DNA from: Candidatus Limnocylindrales bacterium
GTDB lineage: Bacteria > Chloroflexota > Limnocylindria > Limnocylindrales > CSP1-4
Length of the DNA: 60,840 nucleotides
Assembly (NCBI GenBank): GCA_035699725.1
Contig: DASSPG010000218.1
Location: forward strand, 1 to 60,840
Reading direction: 5' to 3'
The notes beneath the pieces are model-generated. The model worked only from the letters and a program-made list of their open reading frames with translations. It did no database searches and had not been told where the DNA came from. Of this stretch, positions 22,274 through 41,407 are shown in pieces. Each line of letters starts with the position of its first letter. Position 1 is the stretch's first letter. The position numbers and the translations under genes were made by a program.

Positions 22274-22588
22274 TCAGGCCGAAAGTGGTCGGCCGGAGTA
22301 CGTTCCGCCCGTCAGGTACCGGGTGGCCAATTCGACGACGAGCCCGAAGACGAGCCCCCCGACCAGCGCGGGGACGAGCGCGAGCCCGTCCCAGGTCGGC
22401 TCGAAGGTTCGCCACGCGACGATGAACTCGCTCGCGACGATCGCGCCGATGCCGGCGGCGATTGCGTCCACGAGCCATTCAAATCCCGTGCGGGTCTCCC
22501 CGATGAACTGGGCCACGGCACCGAAGATCAGGGCTCCGACGATCAGGACGATCCAGCCACCGAGCCCGAGAGAGATGGCAAAGTCCAC
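22274..22588 (-). CDS. small membrane protein, GlsB/YeaQ/YmgE-like
   Basis: A GTG start is preceded by GGAAAGGAGG, a strong SD. The GGWIVLIVGALIFGAVAQFI and AAGIGAIVASEFIV glycine-zipper helices are present. The track ORF is over-extended to 22858. Confidence 0.6.
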   Translation of the reverse strand: MDFAISLGLGGWIVLIVGALIFGAVAQFIGETRTGFEWLVDAIAAGIGAIVASEFIVAWRTFEPTWDGLALVPALVGGLVFGLVVELATRYLTGGTYSGRPLSA

Positions 22589-22854
22589 AGCCTGCCTCCT
22601 TTCCAGGACGTCATGACCGGCGTCCGCAGCAGCATGGTCGGTCAGGGTCGCTGCCCGTCGGAAGTGCCAGTCGGCGCCTTCTGATGGGTGGTCCGGCCCG
22701 TTCGCCGACCGTCTTCCGAGCGCCGACGGCCGGGTCCGCGGAGGTCGCCCGCGACAACGCCGGCACGGACCGGGTCGCCTCACCGCTCGCGTGGCGCCCT
22801 CACCGCGCCTCGGGCCCGGACGGACTTCCGCTCCGGTCCGGTCCCGAATCCGGG

Positions 22855-24066
22855 TCACCCCCTGGCGTAGCGACCGTAGTAGTCGGGTTCAGCATCGGCG
22901 GTCGAGGCCAGCGCGTCGAAGCGATCCGGGTCGAACATCGCAAGGTCGGCCGGCGTCGCGCCGGTCGCGATCCGGGTGGCGAGCAGCTCCGCAAGGTACG
23001 GTGCGAGGAGCATGCCGCGGCCGCTCCATCCGGTGGCCTGCCACCAGCCGTCGAGCTGGCGTGTCGGGCCGACGAGGGGCAGGTGGTCGGGGCTGATGTC
23101 GTACATCCCGGCCCACTGGCGGATGACGGTGACGTCGGCCAGGGCCGGCGCCTTGCGCGTGATGATCGACGCCGTCCGGCGCAGGAATGCGGCCGACGAC
23201 GTCTGATCGACCCCTTCGGGTTCGTCGGGATCGACGACGCCCATGACGACCTCGCCGCGCAGCGTCTGATTGAACCACCCTTCCGTCGGCCGGTAGAAGG
23301 TGACCGCGGCATCGATGGACCGGCGAATCGGCGCCGTCACGAGGACTTCCCGGCGACGGGGCCGGTTCGGCGCGACCACGCCGGCCAGGGCATTGAGGTC
23401 CGCGGACCATCCTCCCGCGGCGTTGACCACGAGCCCGGCGGCGATCCTTCCCCGATCGGTCTCGACACCGGTCACCTTGCCGTTACTGACGGCGACACGA
23501 CGGACCTCCGTCTCCGGCAGCAACCGGACGGCGCGGCCGGCCAGGTGCTCGAGATGGGCCCACACCACGGCGTCGTGATGGACGATCGCGTCGTCGTTGA
23601 GCACGGCCCCGGCAACCGGGTCGCCACCACGCAGGACCGGCAGGCGACGGAGCGTGTCCTCGGGCGACAGGAGCGCGCTGTGGACGCCGATCCGATGATG
23701 CATCGCCACGATCGCGCCCATCCGCTCGACCTCGTCGGGGTCGTACAGGACCCACGCATAGCCGAGCCGGTAGAAGAGGACGTTGAAGCCGAGCTCGTCG
23801 CCCATCCGGTCGTACTTGTCCTGGCAGGCGCGCGCGACGCGCGTGAGCTCCTCGGTCAGCTGCATGGCCCGGATCCGAGCGACGTTGCGGCCCGTCGCAC
23901 CGGATCCCGGGTACCCGCGCTCCACGATGACGATGTCGCGCAGCCCGCGGGCGAGGAGCTCGCGGGCGATAGCGAGGCCGCCGATCCCCGCCCCGACGAT
24001 CACGACCTCGGCGCTCGCCGGTGGGTCCGATCGAGCGAGGAACCCAGCCACCGGGCTGCGGCTCAC
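22855..24066 (-). CDS. FAD-dependent oxidoreductase, sarcosine oxidase beta / HcnC / OoxB-like
   Basis: Dinucleotide fold VVIVGAGIGGLAIARELLARG and ERGYPGSGATGRN, about 403 aa. The GTG start overlaps the upstream stop (GTGA). Confidence 0.85.
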   Translation of the reverse strand: MSRSPVAGFLARSDPPASAEVVIVGAGIGGLAIARELLARGLRDIVIVERGYPGSGATGRNVARIRAMQLTEELTRVARACQDKYDRMGDELGFNVLFYRLGYAWVLYDPDEVERMGAIVAMHHRIGVHSALLSPEDTLRRLPVLRGGDPVAGAVLNDDAIVHHDAVVWAHLEHLAGRAVRLLPETEVRRVAVSNGKVTGVETDRGRIAAGLVVNAAGGWSADLNALAGVVAPNRPRRREVLVTAPIRRSIDAAVTFYRPTEGWFNQTLRGEVVMGVVDPDEPEGVDQTSSAAFLRRTASIITRKAPALADVTVIRQWAGMYDISPDHLPLVGPTRQLDGWWQATGWSGRGMLLAPYLAELLATRIATGATPADLAMFDPDRFDALASTADAEPDYYGRYARG

Positions 24067-25772
24067 GGCGGGTCCTCGGCCGCCAGGTCGCCGAGCCTGA
24101 CCGGGCGCAGCGGCGGCCGAGCGGTGGGCACGTCGGCATTGTCCCCGCCCCACTCGGTCGCGCCGAGGTCCGAAGCGTCCGCGACGACCCGATCTGGGTG
24201 CCCGCTCATGGCGCACGTCACGGCCGACAGGCAGTACTTCCCCTGGCACGGGCCGGTCAGCGCCCCGGTTCGACGCTTCAGGAGCTCGGGGTGCCGATAG
24301 CCGGCGCCCCGCTCGGCGGCAACTTCCCAGGCTCGCACGTCCTCGCAGAAGCACAGGATGGCGTGTCCGGCGGGCGGTGCGGGCGGGTGGCCATGACGCC
24401 GGCTGCGCGGTGGATCGCCACGTTGTGCCGGGGGGTCGCTGGCGCTGACGGCGGCCCAGGCCGCGGTCGCCCGGGCAGCGCGGGACGCCGCGCGTCCGAC
24501 GCGATCCGGATCGGCTCCGCGGGCGTCGAGGCCGTCGGTTGCACCGGCAGCCGCACCGGCCACGAACAGTCCGGCCACCGTGGTTCGCCCGTCCCCATCC
24601 AGGAGCGGCGCGAGGCGACCGGCGCGCCAGCCAACCTCGGCACCCGCGGCCAGAACCAGATCGAGGTTCGGCGTGCGGTCCCCGAACGCGACGAGGTCCA
24701 CGGCTTCGCGCCGGGCTCCCGGGCCGACCCCGCCTGCTCGAATCCGGACCGACGCGACGCGCCCGCGGCCGGCGATGCCGAGTAGCGCCGACGTCGCGAT
24801 CGGCCCCACGACGGCGGCACCGGACGCCCGCAGGACCGCTGCCGCCGATTCCACCTCCTCGCCCTCGCCGACCAGCAGCGCGCGCTCCCCCGGCAGCACC
24901 CGGTGACGCGTGACGAGCGTGCTGACGAGCCGGGCGCTCATCACGCCCGGCCGGTCGGAGCCCGGCACGTTCGGAATGAGCTCGTACGTCCCGGTGGCGG
25001 CGACAACCGCCTTCGGGCTGAGCGACAGCAGGGCGTCGTGACCGATCGCGGTGACGGTGCCCCCGTACCAACCGATCGCCGTCGTCCCCAGCCGGACCTC
25101 CACGCCGAGCTGGCGAACCGCGGCAAGAAGGCCGCTGAGCGCGGGGCGGCGGGCTGCTCCCTCACGATCGAGGTCTGCCTCGGCCTCCAGGACGACGACC
25201 CGAGCCCCCGCGCGGGCGGCTGCCATCGCTGCGCCGAGCCCGCTCCGTCCGCCGCCCACGACCAGGACGTCGGGGTCATCGCGGTGGACCGTCCGCACCG
25301 GGCGATCGGAGCGCGGGCCGCTGGCGAGCCGACCCCGGCCACCAAGCGACCGGAGGACGTCGAGGTAGGCCTTGCGCAGGAAGCGCGGCCGGAGGAAGCG
25401 GTGGTGGTAGAAGGTCGGCGGAACGAAGCGCGAGCCCAGGTCCAGGACGGCGAGCAGGTCATGCTCGACAGACGGCCAGGCATGCTCGCCCCGGACGACC
25501 ATGCCGTCGCGCAACGGGATCCGGCAGGTCCGGACGCTGGGCCGGCCGTCGACCTCGCACTCGCACCAGCCGCACTGGCCGGTGCTGCACATGAGTCCGC
25601 GCGGGCGATGGAACCGGAAGCTCCGCGACAGGGTCCGCCGTCCGGCCGCGAGCAGGCTCACCGCCAGCGGCTCGCCCTCGTGCCCCTCGTACGACATGCC
25701 GTCGAAGCGGAACGTGGCGGACGCGGGCGGTCGGTCGCCGGGTGCGGCGGCCGGCAGACGTCGGGGCGGCAC
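24063..25772 (-). CDS. fused [2Fe-2S] / FAD-NAD(P) oxidoreductase / BFD-like [2Fe-2S] protein (HcnA+HcnB / OoxA-like)
   Basis: The N-terminus is FRFDGMSYEGHEGEPLAVSLL...FHRPRGLMCSTGQCGWCECEVDG...RTC. The Rossmann fold is DVLVVGGGRSGLGAAMAAARAGARVVVLE. The C-terminus is ILCFCEDV...LTGPCQGKYC. GTG start at 25772, 2 nt after the ALDH stop. Confidence 0.8.
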   Translation of the reverse strand: MPPRRLPAAAPGDRPPASATFRFDGMSYEGHEGEPLAVSLLAAGRRTLSRSFRFHRPRGLMCSTGQCGWCECEVDGRPSVRTCRIPLRDGMVVRGEHAWPSVEHDLLAVLDLGSRFVPPTFYHHRFLRPRFLRKAYLDVLRSLGGRGRLASGPRSDRPVRTVHRDDPDVLVVGGGRSGLGAAMAAARAGARVVVLEAEADLDREGAARRPALSGLLAAVRQLGVEVRLGTTAIGWYGGTVTAIGHDALLSLSPKAVVAATGTYELIPNVPGSDRPGVMSARLVSTLVTRHRVLPGERALLVGEGEEVESAAAVLRASGAAVVGPIATSALLGIAGRGRVASVRIRAGGVGPGARREAVDLVAFGDRTPNLDLVLAAGAEVGWRAGRLAPLLDGDGRTTVAGLFVAGAAAGATDGLDARGADPDRVGRAASRAARATAAWAAVSASDPPAQRGDPPRSRRHGHPPAPPAGHAILCFCEDVRAWEVAAERGAGYRHPELLKRRTGALTGPCQGKYCLSAVTCAMSGHPDRVVADASDLGATEWGGDNADVPTARPPLRPVRLGDLAAEDPP

Positions 25773-25773
25773 C

Positions 25774-27261
25774 TCAGCGGATGTGGAAGGTCGGCGAGCT
25801 GTCGATGCAGACCCGCTTCGACTCGAGATAGGCGTCGAGGCCCTCCATCCCGAGCTCACGCCCGATCCCGCTCTGCTTGACGCCTCCGAACGGGGTCTCG
25901 GCCAGGCGGACGTAGTGGGTGTTCACCCAGACGTCGCCCACCCGCAGGCGACGGGCCAGGCGGATGGCACGATCGAGGTCGGTCGTCCAGACGGCGCTGC
26001 CGAGGCCGTACTCGCTGTCGTTCGCGACCGCGAGCGCCTCCTCCTCCCGAGCGAACGGGATGACGGACAGCACCGGTCCGAAGATCTCCTCGCGCGCGAT
26101 CGTCATGCCCGGGTCGACATCGTCGAACAGCGTGGGGGCCATGTAGTGCCCGGCCGCCCACTGCTCGCCGAGGCGCTCGCCGCCGAGCACCAGTCGAGCT
26201 CCCTCCGCCCGGCCCCGCGCCACGTAGCCCAGGACCCGGTCGAGCTGGCGCTGCGAGACCATCGGGCCGACCTGCGTGTCCTCGTCCAGCGGCGACCCGA
26301 CGCGGAGGGCCTGGGCCCGCTCGACGAGCCCTTCGAGGAACCGATCGTGGATCGAGCGCTCGACGAGGAGCCGGGAGCCGGCCGTGCAGGACTGCCCCGC
26401 GTAGAGGAAGATCCCGACCGCCACGGCATCCATCGCCTTCTCGAGGTTCGCATCGGGGAAGACGAGGACGGGTGCCTTGCCGCCGCCTTCGAGCGAGAGG
26501 CGCTTGAAGTTCCTCGATCCCAGCTCCATCAGCCGCCGGCCGACCTCGCTGCTGCCGGTGAAGCTGAGCTTGTCGACGCGCGGATCGAGCGCCAGTCCCT
26601 CGCCGAGGACCTCGCCGGCGCCCACCACGCCGTTCGCGACTCCTGTCGGCAGCGCGGGAATGCGCTCGAGGAGCTTGAAGATCTCCATCGATGACGCGGG
26701 TGCGTCGCTCGCCGGCTTGAGGACGAACGTGCAACCGGTGGCGATCGCCGCCCCGATCTTGCGGAGTGGCAGGTCCACGGGGTCGTTCCAGGGCGTGATC
26801 AGTCCGCACACACCGACCGGCTCCTTGATCACGATGTTGAGGAGGTGGCTGGGTGCGGCCGACGTCACCTCGCCGCGGATCAGGCGGGCGGCCCCGGCGT
26901 AGAACTGGATCCGATCGATCGCGGGCTCGATCTCGCGCTCACGGACGTAGCGGATCGGCTTGCCCATCTCGGTCGCCACGAGTCGCGCGATGGGCTCCGC
27001 CTCAGCACGCAGCAGTCGGGCCAGCTCGAGGAGGATCGCGGCTCGCTCGCGCCCGGACGACTGTGGCCAGCCGCCGTCATCGAAGGCGGATCGGGCCGCG
27101 CCGACGGCCCGATCGAGATCCTCGATCCCCGATTGTGGTGCCGTCGCAACGAGCTCGCCGGTCGCCGGGTTGCGACTCTCGATCGTGGCTCCGGACGCGG
27201 CCGGCGACCACGAGCCCGCGATGTAGTTCTCGACGTTGATGGGCGGCGCGGTCGACGTCAT
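25774..27261 (-). CDS. NAD(P)-dependent aldehyde dehydrogenase
   Basis: MTSTAPPINVENYIAGSW N-terminus, LSLEGGGKAP (catalytic Glu motif) and YAGQSCTAGSR (catalytic Cys). The ATG overlaps the upstream stop (ATGA). Confidence 0.92.
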   Translation of the reverse strand: MTSTAPPINVENYIAGSWSPAASGATIESRNPATGELVATAPQSGIEDLDRAVGAARSAFDDGGWPQSSGRERAAILLELARLLRAEAEPIARLVATEMGKPIRYVREREIEPAIDRIQFYAGAARLIRGEVTSAAPSHLLNIVIKEPVGVCGLITPWNDPVDLPLRKIGAAIATGCTFVLKPASDAPASSMEIFKLLERIPALPTGVANGVVGAGEVLGEGLALDPRVDKLSFTGSSEVGRRLMELGSRNFKRLSLEGGGKAPVLVFPDANLEKAMDAVAVGIFLYAGQSCTAGSRLLVERSIHDRFLEGLVERAQALRVGSPLDEDTQVGPMVSQRQLDRVLGYVARGRAEGARLVLGGERLGEQWAAGHYMAPTLFDDVDPGMTIAREEIFGPVLSVIPFAREEEALAVANDSEYGLGSAVWTTDLDRAIRLARRLRVGDVWVNTHYVRLAETPFGGVKQSGIGRELGMEGLDAYLESKRVCIDSSPTFHIR

Positions 27262-28601
27262 CGAACTCCCTTGATCGACTGGATGAGGGTTCCGACCGCG
27301 ACGTCGAGCAGGGGCTCCTCGATCGTCAGGGGCGGGCAGATCTTCAGGACGCTCTCGGCGCGGCCGCCGAGTCCTGCGACGACGCCGTGGTGGAAGGCGT
27401 CCTGGCGGATCGCCGCGGCGCGCCCGGGATCCGGCGCGGGAGCGTCGCGTCCGGTCACGATCTCGATGCCGATGAACAGGCCGAGGCCCCGGATCGCGCC
27501 GACCGACGCGACGTCGGCGAGCTCGGATCGCAGAACATCGATGATCCGTGCTCCGAGTCGCTCGGACCGTTCCCACAGGCGATCGCGGCGCATCACCCCG
27601 ATCGCCGCCCGGCCGGCCGCGAGGCTGACGGCGTTGCCCATGAAGGTCGAGGTGTGCGTCCCAGGCGTCCAGTGGCCCATGATCTCGCGCCGGCCGACGA
27701 CTGCGGACACCGCCATGCCGCCGCCGACGCCCTTGCCAACCGTCATGAGATCGGGCACGACGTCCCAGTGCTCGGCCGCCCAGAGTCGGCCGGTCCGCCC
27801 GAACCCGCTCTGGATCTCGTCGAACACGAGCACGATGCCATGGCGATCACACAGCGCGCGGAGGCCCCTCAGGAATCCTGCCGGTGGGATGATGACGCCG
27901 CCGTTGCCCTGGACCGGCTCGAGCACGATCGCCGCCACCGGCCCGATCCCCGACGCCGGATCCTCCAGGGCGTTCCGCACGAGCGCGAGGGCCGCCTCGC
28001 CGGCGTGCTCGGGCGGCCCGATCGTCCAGCCATCCGGGTCGGGATAGGGAAGGAACTGGGCGTCCCCGTCGCGCGCCACGCGAAGCCGATGGGCGGACTT
28101 GCCGTTGAGCCCGATCACGCCGCCGGCGCGGCCGAAATAGCCGCCCGAGAACGCGATCACCTCGCGCCGGCCGGTCAGGGACCGGGCCAACTTGAGGGCG
28201 GTGTCGTTGGCGTCGGCGCCGCTCAGGCCGAGCAGCACGCGATCGAGGCCGGCGGGCGCGATGGCGACGAGGGCCTCCTCGAATGCCACCCGTACCTCGC
28301 TCGTGGCCGCCGACGAGACGTGGCTCGCCCGTCCGGCCTGATCCCGGATCGCGGCCACGACGTCGGGGTGCGAGTGCCCCACGTTGGCGGCGGCGAAGCT
28401 CCCGGCGAGATCGACGAACTCGTTTCCGTCCGGGTCCACGAGCGTGGCGCCGTGGGCCTCGGCGACGACGAGCGGATCGTCGCTGCCGCCGGTGCGGGGC
28501 CCGGCACCTTCGACCGCGCGCATCCGCTCGATGACCCGACGGGCCTCCGGGCCCGGATAGGCGGTGACGACCCGTGGAGCTGCCGACGACTTGGACGTCA
28601 A
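27258..28601 (-). CDS. class-III (omega) aminotransferase
   Basis: LLGLSGADANDTALKLAR, FDEIQSGFGRTG and DLMTVGKGVGGGMAV (PLP lysine). The putative TTG start overlaps the upstream stop (TTGA). Confidence 0.85.
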   Translation of the reverse strand: MTSKSSAAPRVVTAYPGPEARRVIERMRAVEGAGPRTGGSDDPLVVAEAHGATLVDPDGNEFVDLAGSFAAANVGHSHPDVVAAIRDQAGRASHVSSAATSEVRVAFEEALVAIAPAGLDRVLLGLSGADANDTALKLARSLTGRREVIAFSGGYFGRAGGVIGLNGKSAHRLRVARDGDAQFLPYPDPDGWTIGPPEHAGEAALALVRNALEDPASGIGPVAAIVLEPVQGNGGVIIPPAGFLRGLRALCDRHGIVLVFDEIQSGFGRTGRLWAAEHWDVVPDLMTVGKGVGGGMAVSAVVGRREIMGHWTPGTHTSTFMGNAVSLAAGRAAIGVMRRDRLWERSERLGARIIDVLRSELADVASVGAIRGLGLFIGIEIVTGRDAPAPDPGRAAAIRQDAFHHGVVAGLGGRAESVLKICPPLTIEEPLLDVAVGTLIQSIKGVR

Positions 28602-29581
28602 GGCACGAAGTCGTAGACGTGACGGCCGGCCACCACCACCGGAACGCCGTCGAATTCGACCGTCGGCTCCATGACGAGCCCGTCGAGGTGCACATCGCAC
28701 TCGACCAGGCCACCGTATTCATTCGCCGAGTCGCCGAGCGCGATGTGGACCGTCCCGAACGCCTTCTTCGCCTCCGTGATCTCGTCGCCGATCCGGGCCT
28801 CGGGGTTCAGCCCGATGCCAATCTCGCCGATGTTGTCGGCATCACGGACATCCGCGACGATCCGCCGCAGCCGGTCGGCCGACGGACCGCCCTCGAACGC
28901 CACCGCCCGACCGTCTCGGACGGTGATGGTGAGGGGCCCGGACAACGTCCCGAGGTCCGATGCGACGCGCTCCCAGACGACCACGCCCGCCGCACTTCCC
29001 TCAATCGGTGGCAGCGAGACCTCACCGCCGGGCAGTGCCGAGACCTCGCCCGGACGGCGACAGATGCCGGTCAGCCAGGCCATCGGCTCCCGCCCTGCCA
29101 CGGTCGCGGTGAGGTCCGTTCCGGCGGGTGAGGTGACGCGCACCGTCGTCGTGCCGCGCCAGAGCTCGGCCAACCGTTCCGCCCGACGACGGATCGCGAG
29201 GAAGTCGGCGGTCATCGCGCCATGGCGCCAGGCATCCGCGCGGTACGGAGCGTTGAAGTCGCCCCGGGCCCCGGCGCGCTGGGCAGCTGCCTTGGCGGCC
29301 GTGTGGTAGAGCGACGTGCTGGCCGCGCACAGGACGACGTCCGCCGCCGCCATCGCGGCAGCCGCCGGAGCCGGCGGCTCGGCTCCACTCCGGGGGCGTG
29401 GCGCGATCGTGATGACGACCGGCTCGGCCCGCAGGGCGAGCGCCACCCGAGCCAGCTCGCGCGGGATCTCCGCGTCGGTCGTGGTGTCGACCACGATCGC
29501 GAACCGCTCGCCGGGGCTGATGCCGAGATAGTCGCGAACCACCCGCTCGGCGGTGCTGCCGACCGTGGCGGCCTCGGCCAT
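28598..29581 (-). CDS. M29 aminopeptidase-like / NicX-like metalloenzyme family protein
   Basis: GEIGIGLNPEARIGDEITEAKKAFGTVHIALGDS is the typical M29 C-terminal signature. The MAEAATV start overlaps the upstream stop (ATGA). Confidence 0.7.
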   Translation of the reverse strand: MAEAATVGSTAERVVRDYLGISPGERFAIVVDTTTDAEIPRELARVALALRAEPVVITIAPRPRSGAEPPAPAAAAMAAADVVLCAASTSLYHTAAKAAAQRAGARGDFNAPYRADAWRHGAMTADFLAIRRRAERLAELWRGTTTVRVTSPAGTDLTATVAGREPMAWLTGICRRPGEVSALPGGEVSLPPIEGSAAGVVVWERVASDLGTLSGPLTITVRDGRAVAFEGGPSADRLRRIVADVRDADNIGEIGIGLNPEARIGDEITEAKKAFGTVHIALGDSANEYGGLVECDVHLDGLVMEPTVEFDGVPVVVAGRHVYDFVP

Positions 29582-30396
29582 CACCGGGCCTCCTCCCCTG
29601 CCCCGGCGTCCGCGAGGCTCCATCGCCGACGGACCTCGGCGGCCTCGTCGGGGTCGTGCTGCTCGTGGCGCTGGTAGAAGCCGACGCGGCTGATCTGGTA
29701 CTTGCCCATCCGGTGAAGATCGGCCAGCGACTCCGCGGCCTTGAGCGCGAGGAGGTTCGGATTCAGGATCGGCAGGTCGCGGTGGCGACCAGTCGTCATG
29801 ATCTCGCGCTCGAGGCACCCACCGATGATCGTGCAGCCGAGGATGACGACCTCGGAGGTGTCCTCGCGGAGCGCGTCCACGCAGGCAGCCGCGGCGTCGT
29901 TCGCCACCGCGGTCGAGTCCTTGATCATGTCCGTGACGAACCAGTCGATGCAGCGGACCCCACGGCAGTTCGCGGCCCCGTGGAGGCGGACCTGGTCCTC
30001 CAGCCAGGGGAGCGCCTTGCGATGATCGGTGATGACCGTGAACCGGTGGCCGACGTACGAGGCGTGGTTCATCGCCGCCTCGAGCGGCCCGATGACCGGG
30101 ATGTCGACCAGCTCGCGGGCGACCCGGACGCCCGGGTCGTAGCAGCAGCCCACGACGACCGCGTGGTAGCCGGCCTCCTCCAGCCGACGGACCTTGTCGA
30201 AGATCGCCAGCTCCATGAGGTGCTTGGGGTAGTAGTAGTCGATGTTCGCGGGCACCCCCTCGAGGTGGATCACGTCCACCGCGCTCCCGCTCGCCGCGTA
30301 CGGGACGAGGGTCTCGCGGATGATCGCGTCGAACGCGGCGGTCCCGAACGGGTTGATGAACGCGATCCTGCGTTCCGCGCTTTCGATCGTCACCAC
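29581..30396 (-). CDS. Asp/Glu/hydantoin racemase family protein (hydantoin-racemase-like)
   Basis: RIAFINPFGT. The two catalytic-Cys contexts are VVVGCCYDPG and VVILGCTIIGG. PVIGPLEAAM is also present. Tandem GTG starts (30396 and 30393) overlap the upstream stop. Confidence 0.8.
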   Translation of the reverse strand: MVTIESAERRIAFINPFGTAAFDAIIRETLVPYAASGSAVDVIHLEGVPANIDYYYPKHLMELAIFDKVRRLEEAGYHAVVVGCCYDPGVRVARELVDIPVIGPLEAAMNHASYVGHRFTVITDHRKALPWLEDQVRLHGAANCRGVRCIDWFVTDMIKDSTAVANDAAAACVDALREDTSEVVILGCTIIGGCLEREIMTTGRHRDLPILNPNLLALKAAESLADLHRMGKYQISRVGFYQRHEQHDPDEAAEVRRRWSLADAGAGEEAR

Positions 30397-31667
30397 ATGC
30401 TCCGCTCATCGGTGGTCTCGAGGCCGGCGCGATCCGGCCGGAACGGGGCGGGGTCCAGCACGGGCTCGCCGCCGCAGATGACGCTGGCGACGAGGCGACC
30501 CGTCGTCGGGCCGGCCCCGTTGCCGAAGACATGGCCCGCAGCGACGATCAGGTCGTCGTATCCCGGCGGGCGCCCAATCAGCGGCAGGCTGTCCGACGTG
30601 AACGGGAGGATCCCGGCCCATGCCCGTGCAAATCTTGCCGCCCGCAGCTCCGGCAGGGCACCGAGCATGCCCTCGGTGACGAGGCCGATTCCCGCCAGGT
30701 TGGGACGCCAGTCGAAGCCCGGGTAGTCCATCGCGATCCCCAGGAGATAGGAACCGTCGGCCGTCTGGCACGCCGACTCGAGCAACGCCAGGCCGAGACG
30801 TTCCTCGATGGCCGTCGAGAACGGTTCAGGGGAGAAGCTGTCCAGTTCGCGGAAGATCGCGTACTGCTTGACGGCAGCCGGCCCGTAGAGGAGGTGCTCG
30901 AGGCGCGGCGGCATCGGCTCCGTCTGGACGACCTGGAGGCGCATGGGATGGATCGCGAGGTCGAGCCCGAGCTGCCGGGCGATCGCCGGGCTCCAGGCGC
31001 CCGCCGCGAGGACGACCTGTCCGGGCGAGATCGGCCCCAGGTCGGTGTCGACCCGGCTGATCCGCGACCCGTCGCGGACGATGGCCCGCGCTGCCGTCCC
31101 CTCGCGGACGATGGCGCCGTGGCGCTGGGCGGCAAGAGCGAACGCGCGCACGAAGCGGCGCGAGTCGATCTGGGCGTCGAGCGGGCAGAACGTCGCACCG
31201 ATCACGCTCTCAGGCAGGATCGGTGCCAGCTCGCGCGCTTCGGCACCGTCGAGCAGCTGCATCGGCACGCCATCGGCCGTCCGCCGCTCCACGAACTCGC
31301 GCATCACCACCGCCTGGGCCTCGGTCGTGAAGTAGGTCAATCCGCCTCGGCAGCGCAGCCCGAAGTCGACGCCGAGCTCGTCGGGCAGCTCCTCGAGCGT
31401 GGAGCGGGTAGCCATCACGAGCTCCAGCTCCGGGCCGGCGCGCCTGGTGTGGACCCAGATGTACCCGAGATTCCTGCCCGTTGCCCCGAACGCCAGCTCC
31501 TCCGCCTCGAGCAGCAGCACGCTCGCCCCGCTCCGGGCGAGGTGATAGGCACAGGCAGCACCAACGATGCCGCCGCCGATGACGAGGACGTCGGGGGACG
31601 GGTTCAACGACTCTCCGGATGTGCGGGGGCTGTCCCGGGACGCTAGCAGCGCGTGCGTGCTCGCCAT
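30390..31667 (-). CDS. FAD-dependent oxidoreductase (DAO family)
   Basis: DVLVIGGGIVGAACAYHLARSGASVLLLEAE and FGATGRNLG. The start is uncertain: ATG 31667 abuts the divergent regulator ATG, while TTG 31607 with GGAGAG upstream is an alternative. Confidence 0.85.
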   Translation of the reverse strand: MASTHALLASRDSPRTSGESLNPSPDVLVIGGGIVGAACAYHLARSGASVLLLEAEELAFGATGRNLGYIWVHTRRAGPELELVMATRSTLEELPDELGVDFGLRCRGGLTYFTTEAQAVVMREFVERRTADGVPMQLLDGAEARELAPILPESVIGATFCPLDAQIDSRRFVRAFALAAQRHGAIVREGTAARAIVRDGSRISRVDTDLGPISPGQVVLAAGAWSPAIARQLGLDLAIHPMRLQVVQTEPMPPRLEHLLYGPAAVKQYAIFRELDSFSPEPFSTAIEERLGLALLESACQTADGSYLLGIAMDYPGFDWRPNLAGIGLVTEGMLGALPELRAARFARAWAGILPFTSDSLPLIGRPPGYDDLIVAAGHVFGNGAGPTTGRLVASVICGGEPVLDPAPFRPDRAGLETTDERSMW

Positions 31668-33533
31668 ATGTCGTCAACCGACGAATCCGACCGTGGATCG
31701 TTGGTTGTAGGGCACCGTCCCGCGACGATCGGGCGGACTATCATCGGGTGCGCCGGAACCGCGGGCCGGCGGCCATGTGGGAGGTTGGACACGGACGCCA
31801 CAGCGGACCAGGCCGCGAACGCCCTGCGCGACCAGCTGGACCAGCTCCTGGTCACGGCACGACGCGTCGCCGAGTCTCTGGATCTCGAGACGGTCCTGAG
31901 CGCGATCGTCGATGACGCCACCACGCTCCTCGGAGCCGACAGCGGTGACATCCTGCTCTGGGACCGCGATCGGGGCGTGCTCCGGGTCGTCGCTGTCGCC
32001 AACTTTCCGCCGGGGATGCTCGGGTTCGAGATGCCGTTCGGAGAGGGCGTATCGTCACGCGCCATCATCGATCAGCAGGCGATCGAGGTCGGCGACTACG
32101 CCACCTACGAGCACCGGGTCCGGGCGTTGGACCGATACACCTTCGGATCCGTGCTGTGCGCGCCGCTCCTCTTCCGTGGCCACGCGATCGGCGCGATCAA
32201 CGTCCACGCGCGCGGTCGTCGCCTTCACTTTCCGGCGGGCTCCACCGACCTCCTCGCGGCATTCGCCGGGCATGCGGCGATCGCCATCGATCATGCGCGT
32301 CGGTACGAGAACGAGGTGAAGCTGGGTCGCGATCTGGCCGACACGAACCGCGCCCTGACCCGTCTCCTGACGGTCCAGCGGCGCCTCGCCGAGCACGTCC
32401 TGCTCGACGAGGGTCCCGGCGGCATCGCCGCGGTGCTGGCGGACGACCTCGGCCGTGCGGTCGTGATCCAGGACCATCTGCGGCGCCCGATCGCGGGAGC
32501 GGCGCCGGGTGGCGGCGATGGCTGGCGGCAGCTCCTGGGCGAGTCCGCCAGGGAGGCCTCCGGCTCGCCGCGCGAACCATTCACGGTTTCGGTGCGGATC
32601 GGCCGCGAGGTCGCCGGGCACCTGTTGCTGTCGTCGGACGACGACCTCGGCCCGATCGACCGGGCCCTCGTCGATGCCGCCACCACCGGTGTGGCGCTGG
32701 CGTTCGCGAAGGTCCATGCCGCCCTGGAGGTCGAGGAGCGACTGCGCGGGGAGGCGGTGGCCGACCTGCTCAGCGGGACCTACCCGAACGAGGATGCGAT
32801 CGCAGCCCGCGCCGCGCGCCTGGGGTACGACCTCCACGAGCCGCGCGACCTCGTGGTCATCGATGTCGCAGGCGACGTCCGCACCGCGCCTGCGACGGGT
32901 CCCCACGAGCACCAGCGGCAGTCTCTCGATGTCACTCGCGAGCGACTCGCGATCCGTGCCCCCCGGAGCCTGGCGGTCCTGCATGCCGGCTCGATCGTCG
33001 TGCTGGCCGGCGCGAGCCACCCGAACGAGCTCGATCTCCGGGACCTGGCCGAGGACCTCCAGGCCGCGATTGCCGGTGTGGCTGGCGCAGGCGAGACCAC
33101 GGTGGCGATCTCCGGGCGCTGCCGGCGCCCGGATGACCACGCTCCGGCGTATCAGCTGGCCCGGGATGCGATCGAGCTGATGGTCAAGCTCGGGCGGCAG
33201 GGCGCGGTGATCGCCGTGAGCGAGCTGGGACCGTACGGCCTGCTCCTCCACGCGAGCTCGCGCGAGGATCTCGAGGCGTACGCTCGGCGGACCCTGCGGC
33301 CGCTCATCGAGCACGACCGCCGCCATGGCACGGAGCTGCTGGCCACCCTCCGGGCATTCCTCGAGGAGGATCGCGGCCGGCGTCGGACGGCGGCGCGTTG
33401 CTTCGTCCATGTCAACACGGTCGTCTACCGGGTGCGGCGGATCGAGGAACTGCTCGGCGTGGACCTGGGTGATCCGTCCGTCGTGTTCGACGTCACCCTG
33501 GCGCTGCGCGTCCTCGACCTGCTCGGCGCCTGA
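31668..33533 (+). CDS. PucR/CdaR-family transcriptional regulator with N-terminal GAF domain
   Basis: The GAF-like region is LDLETVLSAIVDDATTLLGADSGDILLWD...GVSSRAI. The C-terminal PucR HTH is LLATLRAFLEEDRGRRRTAARCFVHVNTVVYRVRRIEELLGVDL. The start is uncertain (31668, or 31701 TTG). Confidence 0.85.
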   Translation: MSSTDESDRGSLVVGHRPATIGRTIIGCAGTAGRRPCGRLDTDATADQAANALRDQLDQLLVTARRVAESLDLETVLSAIVDDATTLLGADSGDILLWDRDRGVLRVVAVANFPPGMLGFEMPFGEGVSSRAIIDQQAIEVGDYATYEHRVRALDRYTFGSVLCAPLLFRGHAIGAINVHARGRRLHFPAGSTDLLAAFAGHAAIAIDHARRYENEVKLGRDLADTNRALTRLLTVQRRLAEHVLLDEGPGGIAAVLADDLGRAVVIQDHLRRPIAGAAPGGGDGWRQLLGESAREASGSPREPFTVSVRIGREVAGHLLLSSDDDLGPIDRALVDAATTGVALAFAKVHAALEVEERLRGEAVADLLSGTYPNEDAIAARAARLGYDLHEPRDLVVIDVAGDVRTAPATGPHEHQRQSLDVTRERLAIRAPRSLAVLHAGSIVVLAGASHPNELDLRDLAEDLQAAIAGVAGAGETTVAISGRCRRPDDHAPAYQLARDAIELMVKLGRQGAVIAVSELGPYGLLLHASSREDLEAYARRTLRPLIEHDRRHGTELLATLRAFLEEDRGRRRTAARCFVHVNTVVYRVRRIEELLGVDLGDPSVVFDVTLALRVLDLLGA

Positions 33534-34295
33534 TCAGCGCACCTCCTCCGGGATCTCGTACCAGCGGACCCGCGGACCGACCGCGGCCCGGAGCCGCCAG
33601 GCGAGCGACCTGGGGCAGGTCGCGAGCACCGTGCGCAGGGCCGCGGCGCGATCGATCGCCGTGAATCGGGCAGCGTCGGGCACGGCCCGCAACGGGTCCG
33701 CGGAGTCCGTCCAGCGAGCGATGAGCCGCGCCAGGTTGTCGTCGACCGTGCGCCACCAGCCCCAGTCCCTGCCGCAGACGTCGCGGACCCGCTCGAGCTC
33801 GATCCCCTCCCAGTCGATCTCCGTGAGGGCGTGGTCGGCCAGGAGAGCGAGCGCGTCCTGCGCGTCGCGATCGGTCAGCTCGACGATCTGGAGCTTCGAC
33901 AGAAGGAGATCGACCGGCGCGAGCGTCAGCGGCCACCCGGCAACCGGGACTCGATCGTCGAGCCGAAGCTCGTGGCACATCCGGATGGTCCCGACGAAGA
34001 TGTCGACCCGCCGTCCCGTGACGTCGTGGAACAGCAGCCGCTCGGAGCCGTTGAGGGTGTTGAACGGGAGCGCCGGCCCGTAGCCGAGGGATGTGAGGAC
34101 GCGCGTGATCGCAGGCGCACCGGTCCGCGCGACGAGGTCGATGTCGTGATAGGTCCGCCGTGGCTCGACCAGCTGGACCGTCGGCGCCACCAGCGCCACC
34201 GCCACGCCGCCCACGGCTCGCATCGCGAGCCCGACCTCCGCTGCGGCACCGATGATCCGACGCGCCTCCTCGATCGGGTCCGCGAGCGACGTCAT
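33534..34295 (-). CDS. nucleotidyltransferase-fold protein, function unknown
   Basis: MRAVGGVAVAL...RRTYHDIDLV resembles the GG...h-D-x-D motif of minimal nucleotidyltransferases. The ATG overlaps the upstream stop (ATGA). The track ORF is over-extended to 35207. Confidence 0.55.
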   Translation of the reverse strand: MTSLADPIEEARRIIGAAAEVGLAMRAVGGVAVALVAPTVQLVEPRRTYHDIDLVARTGAPAITRVLTSLGYGPALPFNTLNGSERLLFHDVTGRRVDIFVGTIRMCHELRLDDRVPVAGWPLTLAPVDLLLSKLQIVELTDRDAQDALALLADHALTEIDWEGIELERVRDVCGRDWGWWRTVDDNLARLIARWTDSADPLRAVPDAARFTAIDRAAALRTVLATCPRSLAWRLRAAVGPRVRWYEIPEEVR

Positions 34296-35257
34296 CCGGC
34301 CGTGAACGTGAAGTCGCGCAGGCCCTTGCGAGCGGAGACGCGGAGCAGCACGCCCTGGAGGACCCCGTCCTGGTACTGGCTGCCCGGGTTGAAGCCGGTC
34401 GTCGGCCCGATGCGGTATCGACCGCGACCCTCGTGGATGTGGCCGTGCAGCGCGATGGCAGGCTGGCGTTCCGTCACGAGCGCCCGGATGGCCGCGCTCC
34501 CGACCGGAACCATCACCGGCTCGCCGGAGCCGTCGTACTGGATGCGCAGGGCGTCGTCCAGGCGAGGAGCCCGGTCGACGCCGGTGTCGAGCGGCGGCAT
34601 GTGCAGGTTCCAGATGGCGGTGGCACCGCTGGGCAGGTCGTCGGTGACGGCGCGAACGAGGTCTCCGAGGTCCGCATCGGGCACTTCGCGCGGCGTGTTC
34701 CACGGCGTCGGGGTCGACTCTCCACGCGACGCCATCCAGAGGCCCGGTGCGAGCTCCGTCGCGACGCCCTGCACGTTGACGAGGCAGCGAGCGCTGGCGA
34801 GGGGCCCGTCGATCTCGGGGGGATCGTCGTTGCCGGGCATGACGAAGGCTCGCGTCCGCCGATCGGCCAGCCGTTCGTCGGCGAGCGCCAGCCATCCCTC
34901 GAGCGCTTCCAGCTTGAGTCTGGTGAAGACTGCGCGCTCCAGGTCGATCGAGCGCCGGATCTCGGCCATCTCGTCGACGGTCGTCACCATCCCGTAGGCC
35001 CCGTCCCGGCGGGCGGTACGGATCAGCTCCGCCACCTCGGCGCGGGTCTCGAGCCGGTGAACGCGATCCTTCCAGGTCGCGGTCCAGGCCTCTGCGACGC
35101 CGCCCGCCGGATAGATCGGGAGGAGGACCTTCCCGGTCAGGTCCCCGCCGATCACCAGGATGTCGGCGCCGTAGAACCCGGCGGCATTCAGCCACTTCCG
35201 GAAGCACAGGTCCGACCCGTGGATGTCGGCGACGTAGAAGATCGTGAGATCAGTCAC
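34292..35257 (-). CDS. metallophosphoesterase (calcineurin-like) family protein
   Basis: Motifs FYVADIHGS, LVIGGDLTG, VMPGNDD, NLHMPP and ALHGHIHEG. Confidence 0.8.
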   Translation of the reverse strand: MTDLTIFYVADIHGSDLCFRKWLNAAGFYGADILVIGGDLTGKVLLPIYPAGGVAEAWTATWKDRVHRLETRAEVAELIRTARRDGAYGMVTTVDEMAEIRRSIDLERAVFTRLKLEALEGWLALADERLADRRTRAFVMPGNDDPPEIDGPLASARCLVNVQGVATELAPGLWMASRGESTPTPWNTPREVPDADLGDLVRAVTDDLPSGATAIWNLHMPPLDTGVDRAPRLDDALRIQYDGSGEPVMVPVGSAAIRALVTERQPAIALHGHIHEGRGRYRIGPTTGFNPGSQYQDGVLQGVLLRVSARKGLRDFTFTAG

Positions 35258-35284
35258 CCGGCGGACGGATGCAGCGGGACCACG

Positions 35285-36907
35285 TCACTCCGGCGGGATC
35301 TCTCGGAAGGCGGCGTCGATCGGCATTCCCTGCCGCTGCCGGTAGGCGCGGGCAGCGACGTAGATCCCGAGCGGGATGGCGAACTGCAGGCCGGTCGTGA
35401 GGAGCTGCTCCGGGGTGTTGAGGAACAGCAGCTCGTTGGTCAGCATGAAGGAGAGGCCGACGCTGAAGTACACGAGCCCGACGGCACCGCAGATCGACAT
35501 GACCGGAATGCCGGCGATCCGCCAGTTCACCGCGCTCGCCTCGAACAGCGGCCTGGTCCGCGCCAGGTACGGGAACACCACGCCGCACAGCGCCACCATC
35601 CAGAACACGACGTAATAGGCGAGAGCCGGCGTCAGGAACTTCACGATCCCGGTGTGGTACAGGATCAGGAACGACTCGGCGATGACCGCGACGACGATCA
35701 CCGCCACCCATGGCGAGTTGTAGCGCGGGTGGACCTCGGACAGCTTCTGCGGGACCAGCCGATCGAACGACCACGCGAACATGGATCGGGTCGCGATGAT
35801 CATCGCCGACGGCAACCAGAAGTAGCTCCACAGGACCAGGCCCGCGGCCACGACCAGGAACACCGGAAGGCTGTCGATCAGGATCCCGGCATACAGCATG
35901 AATACCGGGTACGCCTCGACGGATCCGCCGTCCTCGGGCACCACGTTGTAGCTCACCCACGTGAGCGCCTGGTTGAAGTCGACCGAGACCGCCGAGGCGA
36001 TCGCCACGAACAGGACGAGCGCGATGCCGGCGTAGAGGAGCATTCCGCCGACGGTCGCGCGGAGCTGGGTCTTCGTGGGGGTCCGGACCTCGCCGCCGAT
36101 GTAGGTCGACGCCCAGGCAATGAGCCAGATGATCGGGATGATCCCCAGGGTGTCGACGAGGCTGAAGCCGGTCGGCATCCCGCTGCTGGCTGCCAGGTCC
36201 AGCGTGGCCTGGTAGCCCGGGACCCCGGCCGCCGCCGCGTATCGGTCGAAGCCCGCCTGGAACGCGGTTGCCGACGCCGTGAAGAAGATCACGAGGAGCA
36301 CGATGCCGCTGATCGCACCCACGATCCAGTTGATGTCCTGGAACCTCAGGTAGGCGCGCAGACCCCGGATGTTGAGCGCGGCCATGACGATGATGAACAC
36401 CGTTCCGAAGAGGAAATAGGTGTTGGGTTCGCTCGCCCACGCACCGATCGAGGCAATCGTCTCGTTGCCGCTGACGGCGCCGTACGAGCTGAACAACGGA
36501 CCGAGCACGAACTGGGCGATCCAGTAGCCGCCGATGCCGACCCAGAACGACTGGCTCATGGCCGCGGCGAAGCTCGCCATGAAGCCGATCGCCGGGTGGA
36601 ACGTCCGCGACAGGAAGACGTACTCGCTTCCCGTCCTGGGCATGATCGAGGAGAGCATCCCGTAGAGGAGGTTGAAGGGAAGGGCGAGCGCCGCGGCGAT
36701 CGGAATCGCCAGCAACAGGTTGCTCTGCGGGAACACCGCGGGGTGGGCCCAGTAGGTGAACATGATGTACACGACGCCGACGTTGGCGACGTTCAGCAGC
36801 AGCATCCGGCCAGGCGACCCGACCCGGACGAACCCCGACGATTCCCGACTGAAGACCTGGCCGGGCGCCGACGCCGTCGCGCCGGATCCGATGACCGCCT
36901 CGCTCAC
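35285..36907 (-). CDS. APC-superfamily amino acid/amine permease
   Basis: 540 aa with about 12-13 hydrophobic helices. SSIMPRTGSEYVFLSR is the typical APC signature region. Confidence 0.85.
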   Translation of the reverse strand: MSEAVIGSGATASAPGQVFSRESSGFVRVGSPGRMLLLNVANVGVVYIMFTYWAHPAVFPQSNLLLAIPIAAALALPFNLLYGMLSSIMPRTGSEYVFLSRTFHPAIGFMASFAAAMSQSFWVGIGGYWIAQFVLGPLFSSYGAVSGNETIASIGAWASEPNTYFLFGTVFIIVMAALNIRGLRAYLRFQDINWIVGAISGIVLLVIFFTASATAFQAGFDRYAAAAGVPGYQATLDLAASSGMPTGFSLVDTLGIIPIIWLIAWASTYIGGEVRTPTKTQLRATVGGMLLYAGIALVLFVAIASAVSVDFNQALTWVSYNVVPEDGGSVEAYPVFMLYAGILIDSLPVFLVVAAGLVLWSYFWLPSAMIIATRSMFAWSFDRLVPQKLSEVHPRYNSPWVAVIVVAVIAESFLILYHTGIVKFLTPALAYYVVFWMVALCGVVFPYLARTRPLFEASAVNWRIAGIPVMSICGAVGLVYFSVGLSFMLTNELLFLNTPEQLLTTGLQFAIPLGIYVAARAYRQRQGMPIDAAFREIPPE

Positions 36908-37149
36908 GCCGCCCTCCTCGTGTCGGATGTGACCCCGCCGGAGGCTACGCGCCGTCGCGCGGCTCGAACAATGTGAGCCGCCGACAGATCGCGTGGCTCC
37001 CGGTTGTGGACGGCGTCGGCTCCCGGGCGGCTTCGAAGGCCGGGACGAGGCCCGGGCGACCGGTCCGGGGTAGCCGGGCCCGGCTAGTATTCGAGTGCGG
37101 CGCCCTGGGCTCCTGTCGGCCGCGCCGAATGTTCGAGGACCGTCACCCG

Positions 37150-39654: not shown

Positions 39655-39656
39655 CG

Positions 39657-40424
39657 ATGCGCGTCCTCGCCTGCATCAAGCGCGTTCCCGCGGTCGCCGG
39701 GCGGATGGTCCTGACCCCCGACGCCCGGGCGCTCGACACCCGCCATCTCGGCTTCACGATCTCGCCACACGAGGAGTGCGCCGTGGAGGAGGCGGTCCGG
39801 CTGATCGAGGCGCACGGCGGCGAGTCGGTCGTGCTGACGCTCGGTCCGGCGGCGGCGGTCGAGCAGCTCCGCGACGCGATGGCGATCGGCATCGGGCGGG
39901 CGATCCACCTCGAGACCGGCGACGAGGACTGGGACGCCGAATCCACCGCGGCCGCCCTCGCCGACGCGATCCGGGCCGACGAAGCGGCCGCCGGTCCGTT
40001 CGATCTCATCCTGCTCGGCAACGAATCGGCCGACGCCGGCGGCTACCAGGTGGCGGTCCGCCTCGGGCGGGCGCTCGGTCGGCCGACGGTGGCCGGCATC
40101 AAGGGGATCGCGGTCGCTGACGGCGCGGTGCGCTGCGAGCAGGAGGTGACGGGCGGTCGCGACGTGTACCGGCTGCCGCTGCCGGCGCTGGTCGCCGTGC
40201 TCGAGGGGCTCAACACGCCACGCTTCCCATCCGTGCCGGGCCGCCTCCGGGCGAAGAGCAAGCCTGTCAGCGCGTCGAGCCCGGCCCGGGCCGCCCAGCG
40301 CCTCGAGCTCGTCCGGCTCGTCGTCCCGCAGGGCAAGGCGAAGCAGGCCGAAGTCCTGGGCCATGGTCCCGAGAGCGCGCCCGCGGTGGTGGCGATGCTC
40401 GACGGCCTGGGGCTGGTCCGATGA
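39657..40424 (+). CDS. etfB: electron transfer flavoprotein, beta subunit
   Basis: MRVLACIKRVP N-terminus, ISPHEECAVEEAVRL and DLILLGNESADAGGYQV. The ATG lies 2 nt after the dehydrogenase stop. Confidence 0.92.
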   Translation: MRVLACIKRVPAVAGRMVLTPDARALDTRHLGFTISPHEECAVEEAVRLIEAHGGESVVLTLGPAAAVEQLRDAMAIGIGRAIHLETGDEDWDAESTAAALADAIRADEAAAGPFDLILLGNESADAGGYQVAVRLGRALGRPTVAGIKGIAVADGAVRCEQEVTGGRDVYRLPLPALVAVLEGLNTPRFPSVPGRLRAKSKPVSASSPARAAQRLELVRLVVPQGKAKQAEVLGHGPESAPAVVAMLDGLGLVR

Positions 40425-41398: not shown

Positions 41399-41407
41399 GC
41401 TTCGACG

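Follow-up and report, generated by a model that had tools for sequence, protein, structure and literature searches.

A conserved seven-gene operon of uncultured Limnocylindria, predicted to serve amine or amino acid catabolism and combining known protein families in an undescribed way

The stretch of DNA analysed here, referred to as the window, comprises 60,840 nucleotides of a Candidatus Limnocylindrales bacterium (contig DASSPG010000218.1, assembly GCA_035699725.1). At positions 22855-31607 it contains seven genes on the minus strand, whose adjoining stop and start codons overlap or abut, and divergent from these a gene for a GAF-PucR regulator. In the order of transcription, the seven genes encode a flavin adenine dinucleotide (FAD)-dependent amine oxidoreductase of the DAO family (gene 1), a racemase-superfamily protein (gene 2), a short metalloenzyme of the M29/NicX fold (gene 3), a class-III pyridoxal phosphate (PLP) enzyme (gene 4), an aldehyde dehydrogenase (ALDH, gene 5) and the two subunits of a heteromeric amine dehydrogenase (genes 6 and 7). 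Judged by these proteins, the genes form a putative catabolic operon for an amine or amino acid, in which known families occur in an undescribed combination that matches no characterised pathway among those tested.

The GC content of the window is 72%, and the GC content of the third codon position singles out one reading frame per stretch, which backs the called frames. Together with the Pfam domains, it bears out the gene content, order, strand and coordinates that an earlier note on this DNA had given for the seven genes and the divergent regulator. From gene 1 to gene 7, the six junctions read GTGA, GTGA, TTGA, ATGA, TGA-G-GTG and GTGA. The longest open reading frames (ORFs) of the divergent pair extend over 30390-31667 (gene 1) and 31653-33533 (regulator). 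Since conserved promoter-like boxes and a dyad (31640-31707) fall inside both of them, later starts are most likely, namely TTG 31607 behind GGAGAG for gene 1 and TTG 31785 behind GGGAGG for the regulator. None of the eight proteins reaches the cut-off of an NCBIfam model, and the products of genes 2 and 3 are without any NCBIfam match. An ORF at 22274-22858, the GTG of which overlaps the stop of gene 7, was rejected as a member of the operon, as its N-terminal half looks non-coding and it is not co-conserved with the operon. Its C-terminal part of about 100 residues alone looks real and contains three hydrophobic helices, suggesting a small membrane protein.

Relatives were located in species-representative genomes using two peptide patterns of gene 3, by which remoter versions of the operon may be missed. 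All of them are metagenome-assembled genomes (MAGs). The window proteins were compared by tblastn with 65 loci, and a locus was counted as complete if every gene was covered to at least 60%. Among the candidates scored, over 1000 were related to the gene 3 protein at E≤1e-10, the best 120 clusters with 79-94% identity. The seven genes were found in identical order and strand in 27 distinct loci. About 25 more loci contain partial runs with unchanged order, interrupted by contig ends, by frameshifts (many of the genomes being long-read MAGs) or by one gene under the coverage limit. The operon order is thereby found in about 50 species-level Limnocylindria MAGs, and the earlier note's reading of the seven genes as one unit stands up to this conservation check. 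Only a single locus (L048) is rearranged, with gene 1 and the regulator lying inverted downstream of gene 7 instead of upstream of gene 2. In about 41 related loci, the regulator gene points away from the operon as it does in the window. The median predicted intergenic gaps across the related loci are -4, -4, -4, -1, +1 and -7 nucleotides (nt), so that the tight packing itself is conserved.

The flanks of the operon show at least two unrelated genomic contexts. In 22 of about 55 loci, a permease of the amino acid-polyamine-organocation (APC) type and a 321-residue gene lie beyond the regulator as in the window, and the 253-residue gene next to them was recovered in 9. In the other context, an S41 peptidase and a rhodanese are located on one side, and a major facilitator superfamily (MFS) transporter and a lysine-2,3-aminomutase (Radical_SAM and LAM_C domains) on the other. 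Because the interior order is kept while the flanks change, the seven genes can be regarded as a functional unit.

Nearly all occurrences of the operon are in uncultured Limnocylindria, where it is patchy and hence accessory. The close loci belong to MAGs labelled Limnocylindria/Limnocylindrales or 'Chloroflexia', except for three bins labelled otherwise, which may be mis-binned. Carriers make up 20 of the 401 sampled genomes of the class, or 14 of 209 among the high-quality genomes. Of the 20 carriers, 16 fall in one genus; in the window's own genus the operon occurs in only one other genome. Across species the operon proteins are 75-90% identical, gene 3 being the best conserved of the unit (75-86%). 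The combination was found neither in the cultured organisms of the plasmid collection nor in loci outside Limnocylindria. Homologues of gene 3 in Rhodococcus (49.5%) and of gene 2 in Rhizobium (50-53%) and Rhodococcus (43%) lie on plasmid records in contexts unrelated to the operon, and Thermomicrobium yielded nothing useful. The nearest gene 3 representatives outside Limnocylindria (55% and 46%) are on contigs shorter than 2 kb with neighbours unlike genes 2 or 4. In addition, two MAGs contain two copies of the operon each (L009/L012 and L028/L054), about 80% identical to the window proteins, which may be paralogues of differing specificity. The features of the window are listed in Table 1.

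Table 1. Operon genes, regulator, promoter spacer and adjacent genes in the window (aa, amino acids).
Feature	Description	Position	Strand or location	Basis
Gene 1	DAO-family FAD amine oxidoreductase, glycine oxidase / D-amino-acid dehydrogenase-like, 405 aa	30390..31607	-	Pfam DAO 3e-68
Gene 2	Cofactor-independent two-thiol racemase/epimerase, Asp/Glu/hydantoin racemase superfamily, 271 aa	29581..30396	-	Pfam Asp_Glu_race 5e-31
Gene 3	Short M29/NicX-fold metalloenzyme, 328 aa	28598..29584	-	Pfam Peptidase_M29, 33.3 bits (cut-off 27)
Gene 4	Class-III-fold PLP enzyme, GabT/PuuE-like, 447 aa	27258..28601	-	Pfam Aminotran_3 1e-99
Gene 5	NAD(P)-dependent aldehyde dehydrogenase, 495 aa	25774..27261	-	Pfam Aldedh 1e-165
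Gene 6	Alpha subunit, heteromeric amine dehydrogenase, 569 aa	24063..25772	-	Pfam Fer2_4, FAD/Pyr_redox_2, SO_alpha_A3
Gene 7	Catalytic beta subunit, SoxB/HcnC/PDH-beta-like DAO flavoprotein, 403 aa	22855..24066	-	Pfam DAO 8e-58
Regulator	GAF - GGDEF-like - PucR HTH, 582 aa from TTG 31785	31785..33533	+	Pfam GAF_2/GAF_3/GAF, GGDEF_2, HTH_30
Divergent promoter spacer	177 nt	31608..31784	between gene 1 and regulator	alignment of 19 spacers
Permease	APC-type permease	35285-36907	-	Pfam AA_permease_2
321-aa protein	Metallophosphoesterase-like	34292-35257	-	weak Metallophos matches
253-aa protein		33534-34295	-	

The match of gene 3 to Pfam PF02073 spans just model positions 203-352 of 406, and its orthologues carry the precomputed Pfam domain PF26233 (NicX). 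The only solved structures related to it in sequence are NicX (2.6e-6 by profile) and, weakly, PepS. An AlphaFold2 model with a mean confidence (pLDDT) of 88.8 was obtained from a more diverse alignment, and a model from a shallow alignment (pLDDT 47) was discarded. Using the former, Foldseek ranked NicX first (7cn3, TM-score 0.84, E 6.5e-25), followed by PepS (4e-18, TM-score 0.69), AmpS (2e-14) and AmpT (5e-14), the TM-scores of these three being 0.61-0.69, with no other significant match. Pfam, profile alignment and Foldseek are thus in line with the claim of the earlier note that the hydrolase has an M29 rather than an M24 fold. The protein has nearly the size of NicX (350 residues) and is about 80 residues shorter than the M29 peptidases.

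The catalytic and metal-binding set of M29 is E-E-H-Y-H-D (PMC7023490), whereas NicX holds one Fe(II) via His265, Ser302, His318 and Asp320 (PMC7910607). The M29 metal ligands of gene 3 (E187, E253, H279, H298 and D300) align with PepS residues and are invariant in the orthologues. Of the NicX ligands, the equivalents of His318 and Asp320, which are common to M29, are kept, but His265 corresponds to Glu253 and Ser302 to Ala281. Glu187 and His279, additional residues belonging to the two-metal site of M29, are both there. Because the M29 ligand set is present and two NicX iron ligands are replaced, gene 3 probably encodes a two-metal amidohydrolase on a NicX-sized scaffold and not a dioxygenase. 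The gene 3 subfamily has a tyrosine, Y289, in a column which is Tyr in 14 of 131 representatives of the short family, its equivalence to the M29 Tyr being unproven; the five metal ligands are retained in 119-129 of the 131. This family of short M29 proteins (about 320 residues) is large and uncharacterised, with 330 representative clusters at E≤1e-30.

The short-M29 genes of other taxa were inspected for their neighbours. These are an amidase or a D-aminoacylase-type amidohydrolase in Gemmatimonadota, an enolase-superfamily gene of epimerase-like type in Halorussus, and peptide or OPT transporters in Deinococcus and Streptomyces. In Salinigranum, they comprise AroM, an Asp/Glu racemase, an AstE/aspartoacylase-family gene and a peptide-type ATP-binding cassette (ABC) transporter. 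As short-M29 genes in unrelated taxa adjoin racemase or epimerase and amidohydrolase genes, amide hydrolysis together with stereo-inversion appears to be a recurring theme, which supports the epimerase and amidohydrolase front end proposed below. The run on the plasmid of Salinigranum rubrum (L080 5976-12941) reads peptide-type ABC transporter, DUF917, DUF1177, AroM, M29-like protein, Asp/Glu racemase, AstE/aspartoacylase-family protein and Lrp/AsnC, and its last three genes recall EutA-DoeB-DoeX of ectoine degradation.

The gene 2 product matches hydantoin and allantoin racemases of the PDB at 2e-19 and 1e-17, with about 30% identity. Both catalytic cysteines, one per lobe, align with those of 3qvj and 5lfd. 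The corresponding motifs VVGCCYDPG and ILGCTII were found in 55 and 56 of the 56 orthologues. Neither a hydantoinase nor a carbamoylase is encoded in the unit. OpaE was rejected as a counterpart, as it is fungal and biosynthetic.

Gene 4 encodes a protein 37% identical to PuuE of Escherichia coli. Its solved relatives are a mix of gamma-aminobutyrate (GABA) transaminases and class-III-fold racemases, with BAR as the top PDB match. The PLP lysine (MTVGKG, in all orthologues) and the equivalent of Arg141 are retained. The motif QGN(G/A)G (QGNGG in the window) stands for QGEGG, and VLK (V-x-K-x-x-PP) for the VIR of GabT/PuuE. All of the approximately 50 orthologues have Asn or Ser at the position of Glu211 and Lys at that of Arg398; PuuE and the haloarchaeal homologues, which are the best cultured matches (35-38% identical), retain Glu and Arg. 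In E. coli GabT this pair gates the binding of 2-oxoglutarate and glutamate. The racemases of the class-III fold use an Asp as second catalytic base, D222 in ILEP and D234 in ASR (PMC6047364). In gene 4 this position is Asn or Ser, even though BAR ranks first among its PDB matches. With the Glu/Arg pair replaced and the racemase Asp also missing, plain 2-oxoglutarate-dependent transamination is not assured. Hence, of the term class-III aminotransferase used in the earlier note, the fold and the PLP lysine hold and the usual transamination is in doubt. Since the ALDH gene comes next with an ATGA overlap, the conversion of an amine to an aldehyde would be the most economical role of gene 4.

The gene 5 product is 42% identical to E. 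coli PuuC and retains the motifs LEGGGK and SCTAG. It was placed in the broad group of ALDH1/2, PuuC, KauB and BADH, outside the pyrroline-5-carboxylate (P5C) and methylmalonate-semialdehyde dehydrogenases. An aminobutyraldehyde dehydrogenase model is among its top matches, none of which passes the NCBIfam cut-off.

Furthermore, three genes of the operon encode flavoenzyme components. Gene 1 has glycine oxidase 4ysh as its best PDB match (2e-36) and is 25% identical to PuuB. At the position of Arg302, which binds the carboxylate in glycine oxidase, gene 1 has Leu; this replacement is uninformative because the residue is likewise absent from the beta subunit of L-proline dehydrogenase (PDH-beta). 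In gene 6, an N-terminal 2Fe-2S module (HcnA/gamma-like) is fused to an FAD/ADP-binding body, followed by a second Cys cluster and SO_alpha_A3. It matches the alpha subunit of L-proline dehydrogenase (PH1363, 1y56_A) at 4e-12. Cys62, 67, 70, 72 and 83 as well as Cys474, 476, 509 and 514 are kept in all orthologues save for one substitution of Cys514 by Leu. A full-length match to the gene 6 product was not found on any plasmid record, Ti plasmids included. Gene 7 matches 1y56_B at 2e-55 and the sarcosine oxidase beta subunit at 1e-30. A DAO-type beta subunit, an FAD/ADP-binding alpha subunit and 2Fe-2S modules are thus encoded adjacently, as in heteromeric amine dehydrogenases. L-proline is an unlikely substrate of this enzyme, because a canonical Pro_dh is present elsewhere in all five operon-bearing genomes checked. 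In this enzyme group relatedness does not predict the substrate, as BjOpnDH2 is close to the archaeal L-proline dehydrogenase yet inactive on proline (PMC4575208).

In the divergent spacer, a -10-like box GCTG(G/C)TAGCGT (31640-31650) and a conserved CATATG/CATACG box (31664-31670) were identified on the minus strand. The dyad consists of the arms CAACCGACGA (31675-31684) and TCGTTGGTTG (31698-31707), separated by 13 nt. The alignment of 19 spacers shows the -10-like box as a conserved feature, the CATA(T/C)G box at a distance of about 20 nt on its upstream side and the dyad just past that; in one of the related loci (L007) the arms are 12 nt long and the gap is also 13 nt. The half-sites vary between sub-clades, whereas the location is unchanged, and for this reason the dyad is read as a candidate operator which may co-evolve with its cognate regulator. 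Scans of the window for consensus promoters and terminators gave no match in this GC-rich DNA. In about half of the loci (L012, L015, L016, L019, L022 and others), the regulator has an N-terminal extension of about 130-150 residues. There, its conserved part is located about 600 nt from gene 1, and no additional gene was found in between.

The permease, the 321-residue and the 253-residue gene form a three-gene unit (33534-36907), which abuts the 3' end of the regulator gene. This unit may be the uptake system of the operon. A dimethylglycine dehydrogenase (DMGDH)-like enzyme with DAO, FAO_M and GCV_T domains is encoded in the region 36973-43477. With one weak match in the 65 loci, this region was rejected as a conserved partner; it is a possible electron outlet for the flavoenzymes of the operon. 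In the other genomic context, the MFS transporter and the lysine-2,3-aminomutase gene lie convergent to the end of the operon (L004 19068-20987 and 25 other loci). The aminomutase could be a hint of lysine or beta-lysine metabolism or mere synteny.

Taken together, the locus is very probably an inducible catabolic operon. We infer that its substrate is chiral, derives from an amino acid and contains an amide-type bond plus one or more secondary or alpha-amino groups. Within the catabolic reading, we lean slightly towards a front end of epimerase and amidohydrolase whose products pass to two C-N-oxidising flavoenzymes and the PLP/ALDH pair. The order of the steps is a guess. The compound would enter through a single-component permease, of APC type in the window and an MFS protein in the other context. 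It or one of its products would bind the GAF domain of the PucR-type regulator. The latter would act at the conserved dyad just upstream of the gene 1 promoter and turn on one seven-gene mRNA, along which the overlapping stops and starts would couple translation. The two-Cys racemase would then invert the alpha-carbon to suit a stereospecific partner, and the short M29-type enzyme would use its two metals to cleave an amide bond beside a free amino group, yielding two fragments. Fragments with an alpha- or N-alkyl-amino group would be oxidised at the C-N bond by the DAO enzyme and by the heteromeric Fe-S flavoenzyme of the PDH1/opine-dehydrogenase type, the electrons passing to an electron-transferring flavoprotein or quinone. 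A fragment with a distal amino group would be converted to an aldehyde by the atypical class-III enzyme, and the ALDH would turn this aldehyde into an acid entering central metabolism.

Several points weigh against this scheme. Gene 3 is structurally nearest to a dioxygenase, and hydrolysis is argued solely from the ligand pattern and the context of homologues; moreover, the Tyr of the M29 set is not general across the short family. Gene 2 is not an orthologue of the racemases that accompany other short-M29 genes. The gene 4 enzyme is without the usual carboxylate switch and may not transaminate. A single-component permease suits a small amino acid better than a peptide, and the simplest scheme does not need two separate amine dehydrogenases.

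Alternatively, the substrate could be a basic or cyclic amino acid, of either lysine/pipecolate or ornithine/hydroxyproline type, that is degraded via its D-form. The racemase would produce the D-amino acid and the DAO enzyme a cyclic imino acid, which after reduction would be oxidised as the L-imino acid by the heteromeric enzyme. The ALDH would then take the semialdehyde and the class-III enzyme the remaining amino group, leaving the M29-like protein an accessory function only. It is general knowledge that racemases and D-specific DAO-type dehydrogenases are standard pairs (Alr/DadA, HypE/D-Hyp dehydrogenase, lysine racemase/AmaD), and here genes 1 and 2 overlap. The beta subunit is nearest to the archaeal L-proline dehydrogenase, the permease falls into the APC families of amino-acid permeases, and 25 loci have a lysine-2,3-aminomutase gene downstream. 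This aminomutase, however, is convergent and missing from the window's context, and neither an imine reductase (DpkA or OCD type) nor a Pyr4H2C deaminase nor a protein of the proline-racemase family is encoded in the unit. With the ALDH outside the P5C dehydrogenase family, a canonical Pro_dh elsewhere in operon-bearing genomes and the best-conserved gene left without a role, we regard this route as unlikely. A pathway resembling Puu, for a di- or polyamine blocked by a gamma-glutamyl, acetyl or other acyl group, is still less probable, although the identities to PuuC and PuuE and the aminobutyraldehyde dehydrogenase match given above agree with it. The DAO enzyme would oxidise the free amino end and the ALDH would yield an N-blocked amino acid. 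This would be unblocked by the M29-like hydrolase and, as an omega-amino acid, deaminated by the class-III enzyme, in which the kept Arg141 equivalent is the binder of the GABA carboxylate. The heteromeric enzyme would cleave the secondary amines of spermidine-type compounds, and APC permeases such as PuuP are generally known to carry polyamines. Yet polyamines have no stereocentre, so that the invariant two-Cys racemase would be without a task unless the blocking group is chiral. In addition, a PuuA-like ligase and a second ALDH for succinate semialdehyde are not in the unit, and the DAO enzyme is merely 25% identical to PuuB.

That gene 3 is a NicX-like Fe(II) dioxygenase cleaving a pyridine-type N-heterocycle, with gene 2 as a NicE-like cis-trans isomerase, would fit with NicX being both the closest solved structure and the best PDB sequence match, and with the Pfam NicX domain on the orthologues. 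Maleate isomerase is generally known to share the superfamily of gene 2 and to have two Cys as well, and the regulator weakly matches PmfR of the nicotine plasmid. Two of the four iron ligands of NicX are nevertheless replaced, and the Glu and His specific to M29 are in place. The matches of gene 2 at E≤0.01 include hydantoin and allantoin racemases but no maleate isomerase. Moreover, no deformylase, amidase or hydroxylase of the Nic, Pic or Hpo type is encoded in the unit. We consider ring cleavage highly improbable. Least probable of all is that the genes serve to make or modify a non-proteinogenic amino acid or an opine-like metallophore. Biosynthetic clusters do contain racemases, flavoenzymes and PLP enzymes as well, and the epimerase OpaE, which belongs to the Asp/Glu-racemase family, is biosynthetic. 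In the domain scan, however, no ligase, nonribosomal peptide synthetase, ATP-grasp enzyme, methyltransferase or exporter was found within the conserved unit, which supports catabolism, and the ALDH, the pair of amine dehydrogenases and the regulator of PucR type are what one typically meets in degradative operons.

The Limnocylindria, soil Chloroflexota that are widespread but uncultured, have a diet of which little is known. The operon is strongly conserved yet patchily inherited, which suggests a specific and valuable substrate. Rather tentatively, the operon might represent an undescribed catabolic pathway for a nitrogen compound common in soil organic matter, candidates being a peptidoglycan fragment that contains a D-amino acid, an N-alkyl amino acid of opine or Maillard type and an amino-acid amide. 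Two functions would then be novel, that of an amidohydrolase on the NicX scaffold, standing for the short-M29 family, and that of a class-III PLP enzyme acting in the absence of the Glu/Arg switch. Identifying the substrate would extend the soil nitrogen cycle by a further route and assign a function both to the short M29/NicX-fold family, with its hundreds of representative clusters, and to the unusual class-III PLP enzyme; it would also yield a sensor of GAF-PucR type for a new ligand. Should the substrate turn out to be an ordinary amino acid, the operon would be of modest interest, as a non-orthologous variant of known catabolism.

The earlier note had stated that the gene combination matches no known pathway, and the operon is indeed collinear with none of those tested (ectoine, Puu, hydroxyproline and nicotinate). 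The partial likeness it had seen to HcnABC, opine and D-hydroxyproline dehydrogenases, to ectoine degradation and to hydantoin utilisation was recovered by the homology searches. The substrate class that it had proposed, an N-substituted or cyclic amino acid, and its order of reactions are conjectural. The operon follows the logic of the Puu pathway of E. coli, which supports catabolism: its amine oxidase of the DAO family, ALDH, amide hydrolase and class-III PLP enzyme correspond to the PuuB, PuuC, PuuD and PuuE steps. Unlike Puu, it has neither the glutamine-synthetase-like ligase PuuA nor a GATase-type hydrolase as PuuD, the hydrolase being of the M29/NicX fold. It adds a racemase and a second, heteromeric dehydrogenase, its PLP enzyme is without the Glu/Arg pair of PuuE, and its regulator is of the PucR type, not PuuR.

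With ectoine and hydroxyectoine degradation (DoeABCD, EutABC), the operon shares a racemase-superfamily protein (EutA), a peptidase-fold hydrolase, a class-III enzyme (DoeD) and an ALDH (DoeC). In contrast, the domains of DoeA (M24) and DoeB (deacetylase) are found neither in the unit of the window nor in any related locus, the dehydratase EutB and EutC are missing from the unit, and the two flavin dehydrogenases have no counterpart there. A diaminobutyrate transaminase model of NCBIfam was not matched over its cut-off. Unlike the hydroxyproline pathway LhpA-G, the unit has no proline-racemase-family epimerase and no Pyr4H2C deaminase of the DapA family. From the nicotinate/2,5-dihydroxypyridine pathway NicX-D-F-E it differs in that the deformylase NicD and the amidase NicF are not present and the NicX ligands are not kept. 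The homarine (hom) operon was rejected as a counterpart, since its enzyme set differs.

PDH1 (1y56), OdhABC/Oox/Nox, LhpBEF and HcnABC likewise have a DAO-type beta subunit, an FAD/ADP-binding alpha subunit and 2Fe-2S Cys clusters (PMC4575208), but in the operon the small Fe-S subunit is fused to alpha. In the GabR-gabTDP system of Corynebacterium glutamicum, a PucR-type activator is also divergent from genes for a class-III aminotransferase and an ALDH (PMC7652997), an established arrangement that supports the reading of the operon as catabolic and regulated. The operon differs from it by five further enzymes, a GAF domain at the N-terminus of the regulator, an atypical PLP enzyme and a permease located outside the operon. 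Finally, gene 3 has the fold of the M29 aminopeptidases AmpS, AmpT and PepS and of NicX (Foldseek E 1e-14 to 1e-25), sharing five ligands with M29 and the size and scaffold with NicX (PMC7023490, PMC7910607).

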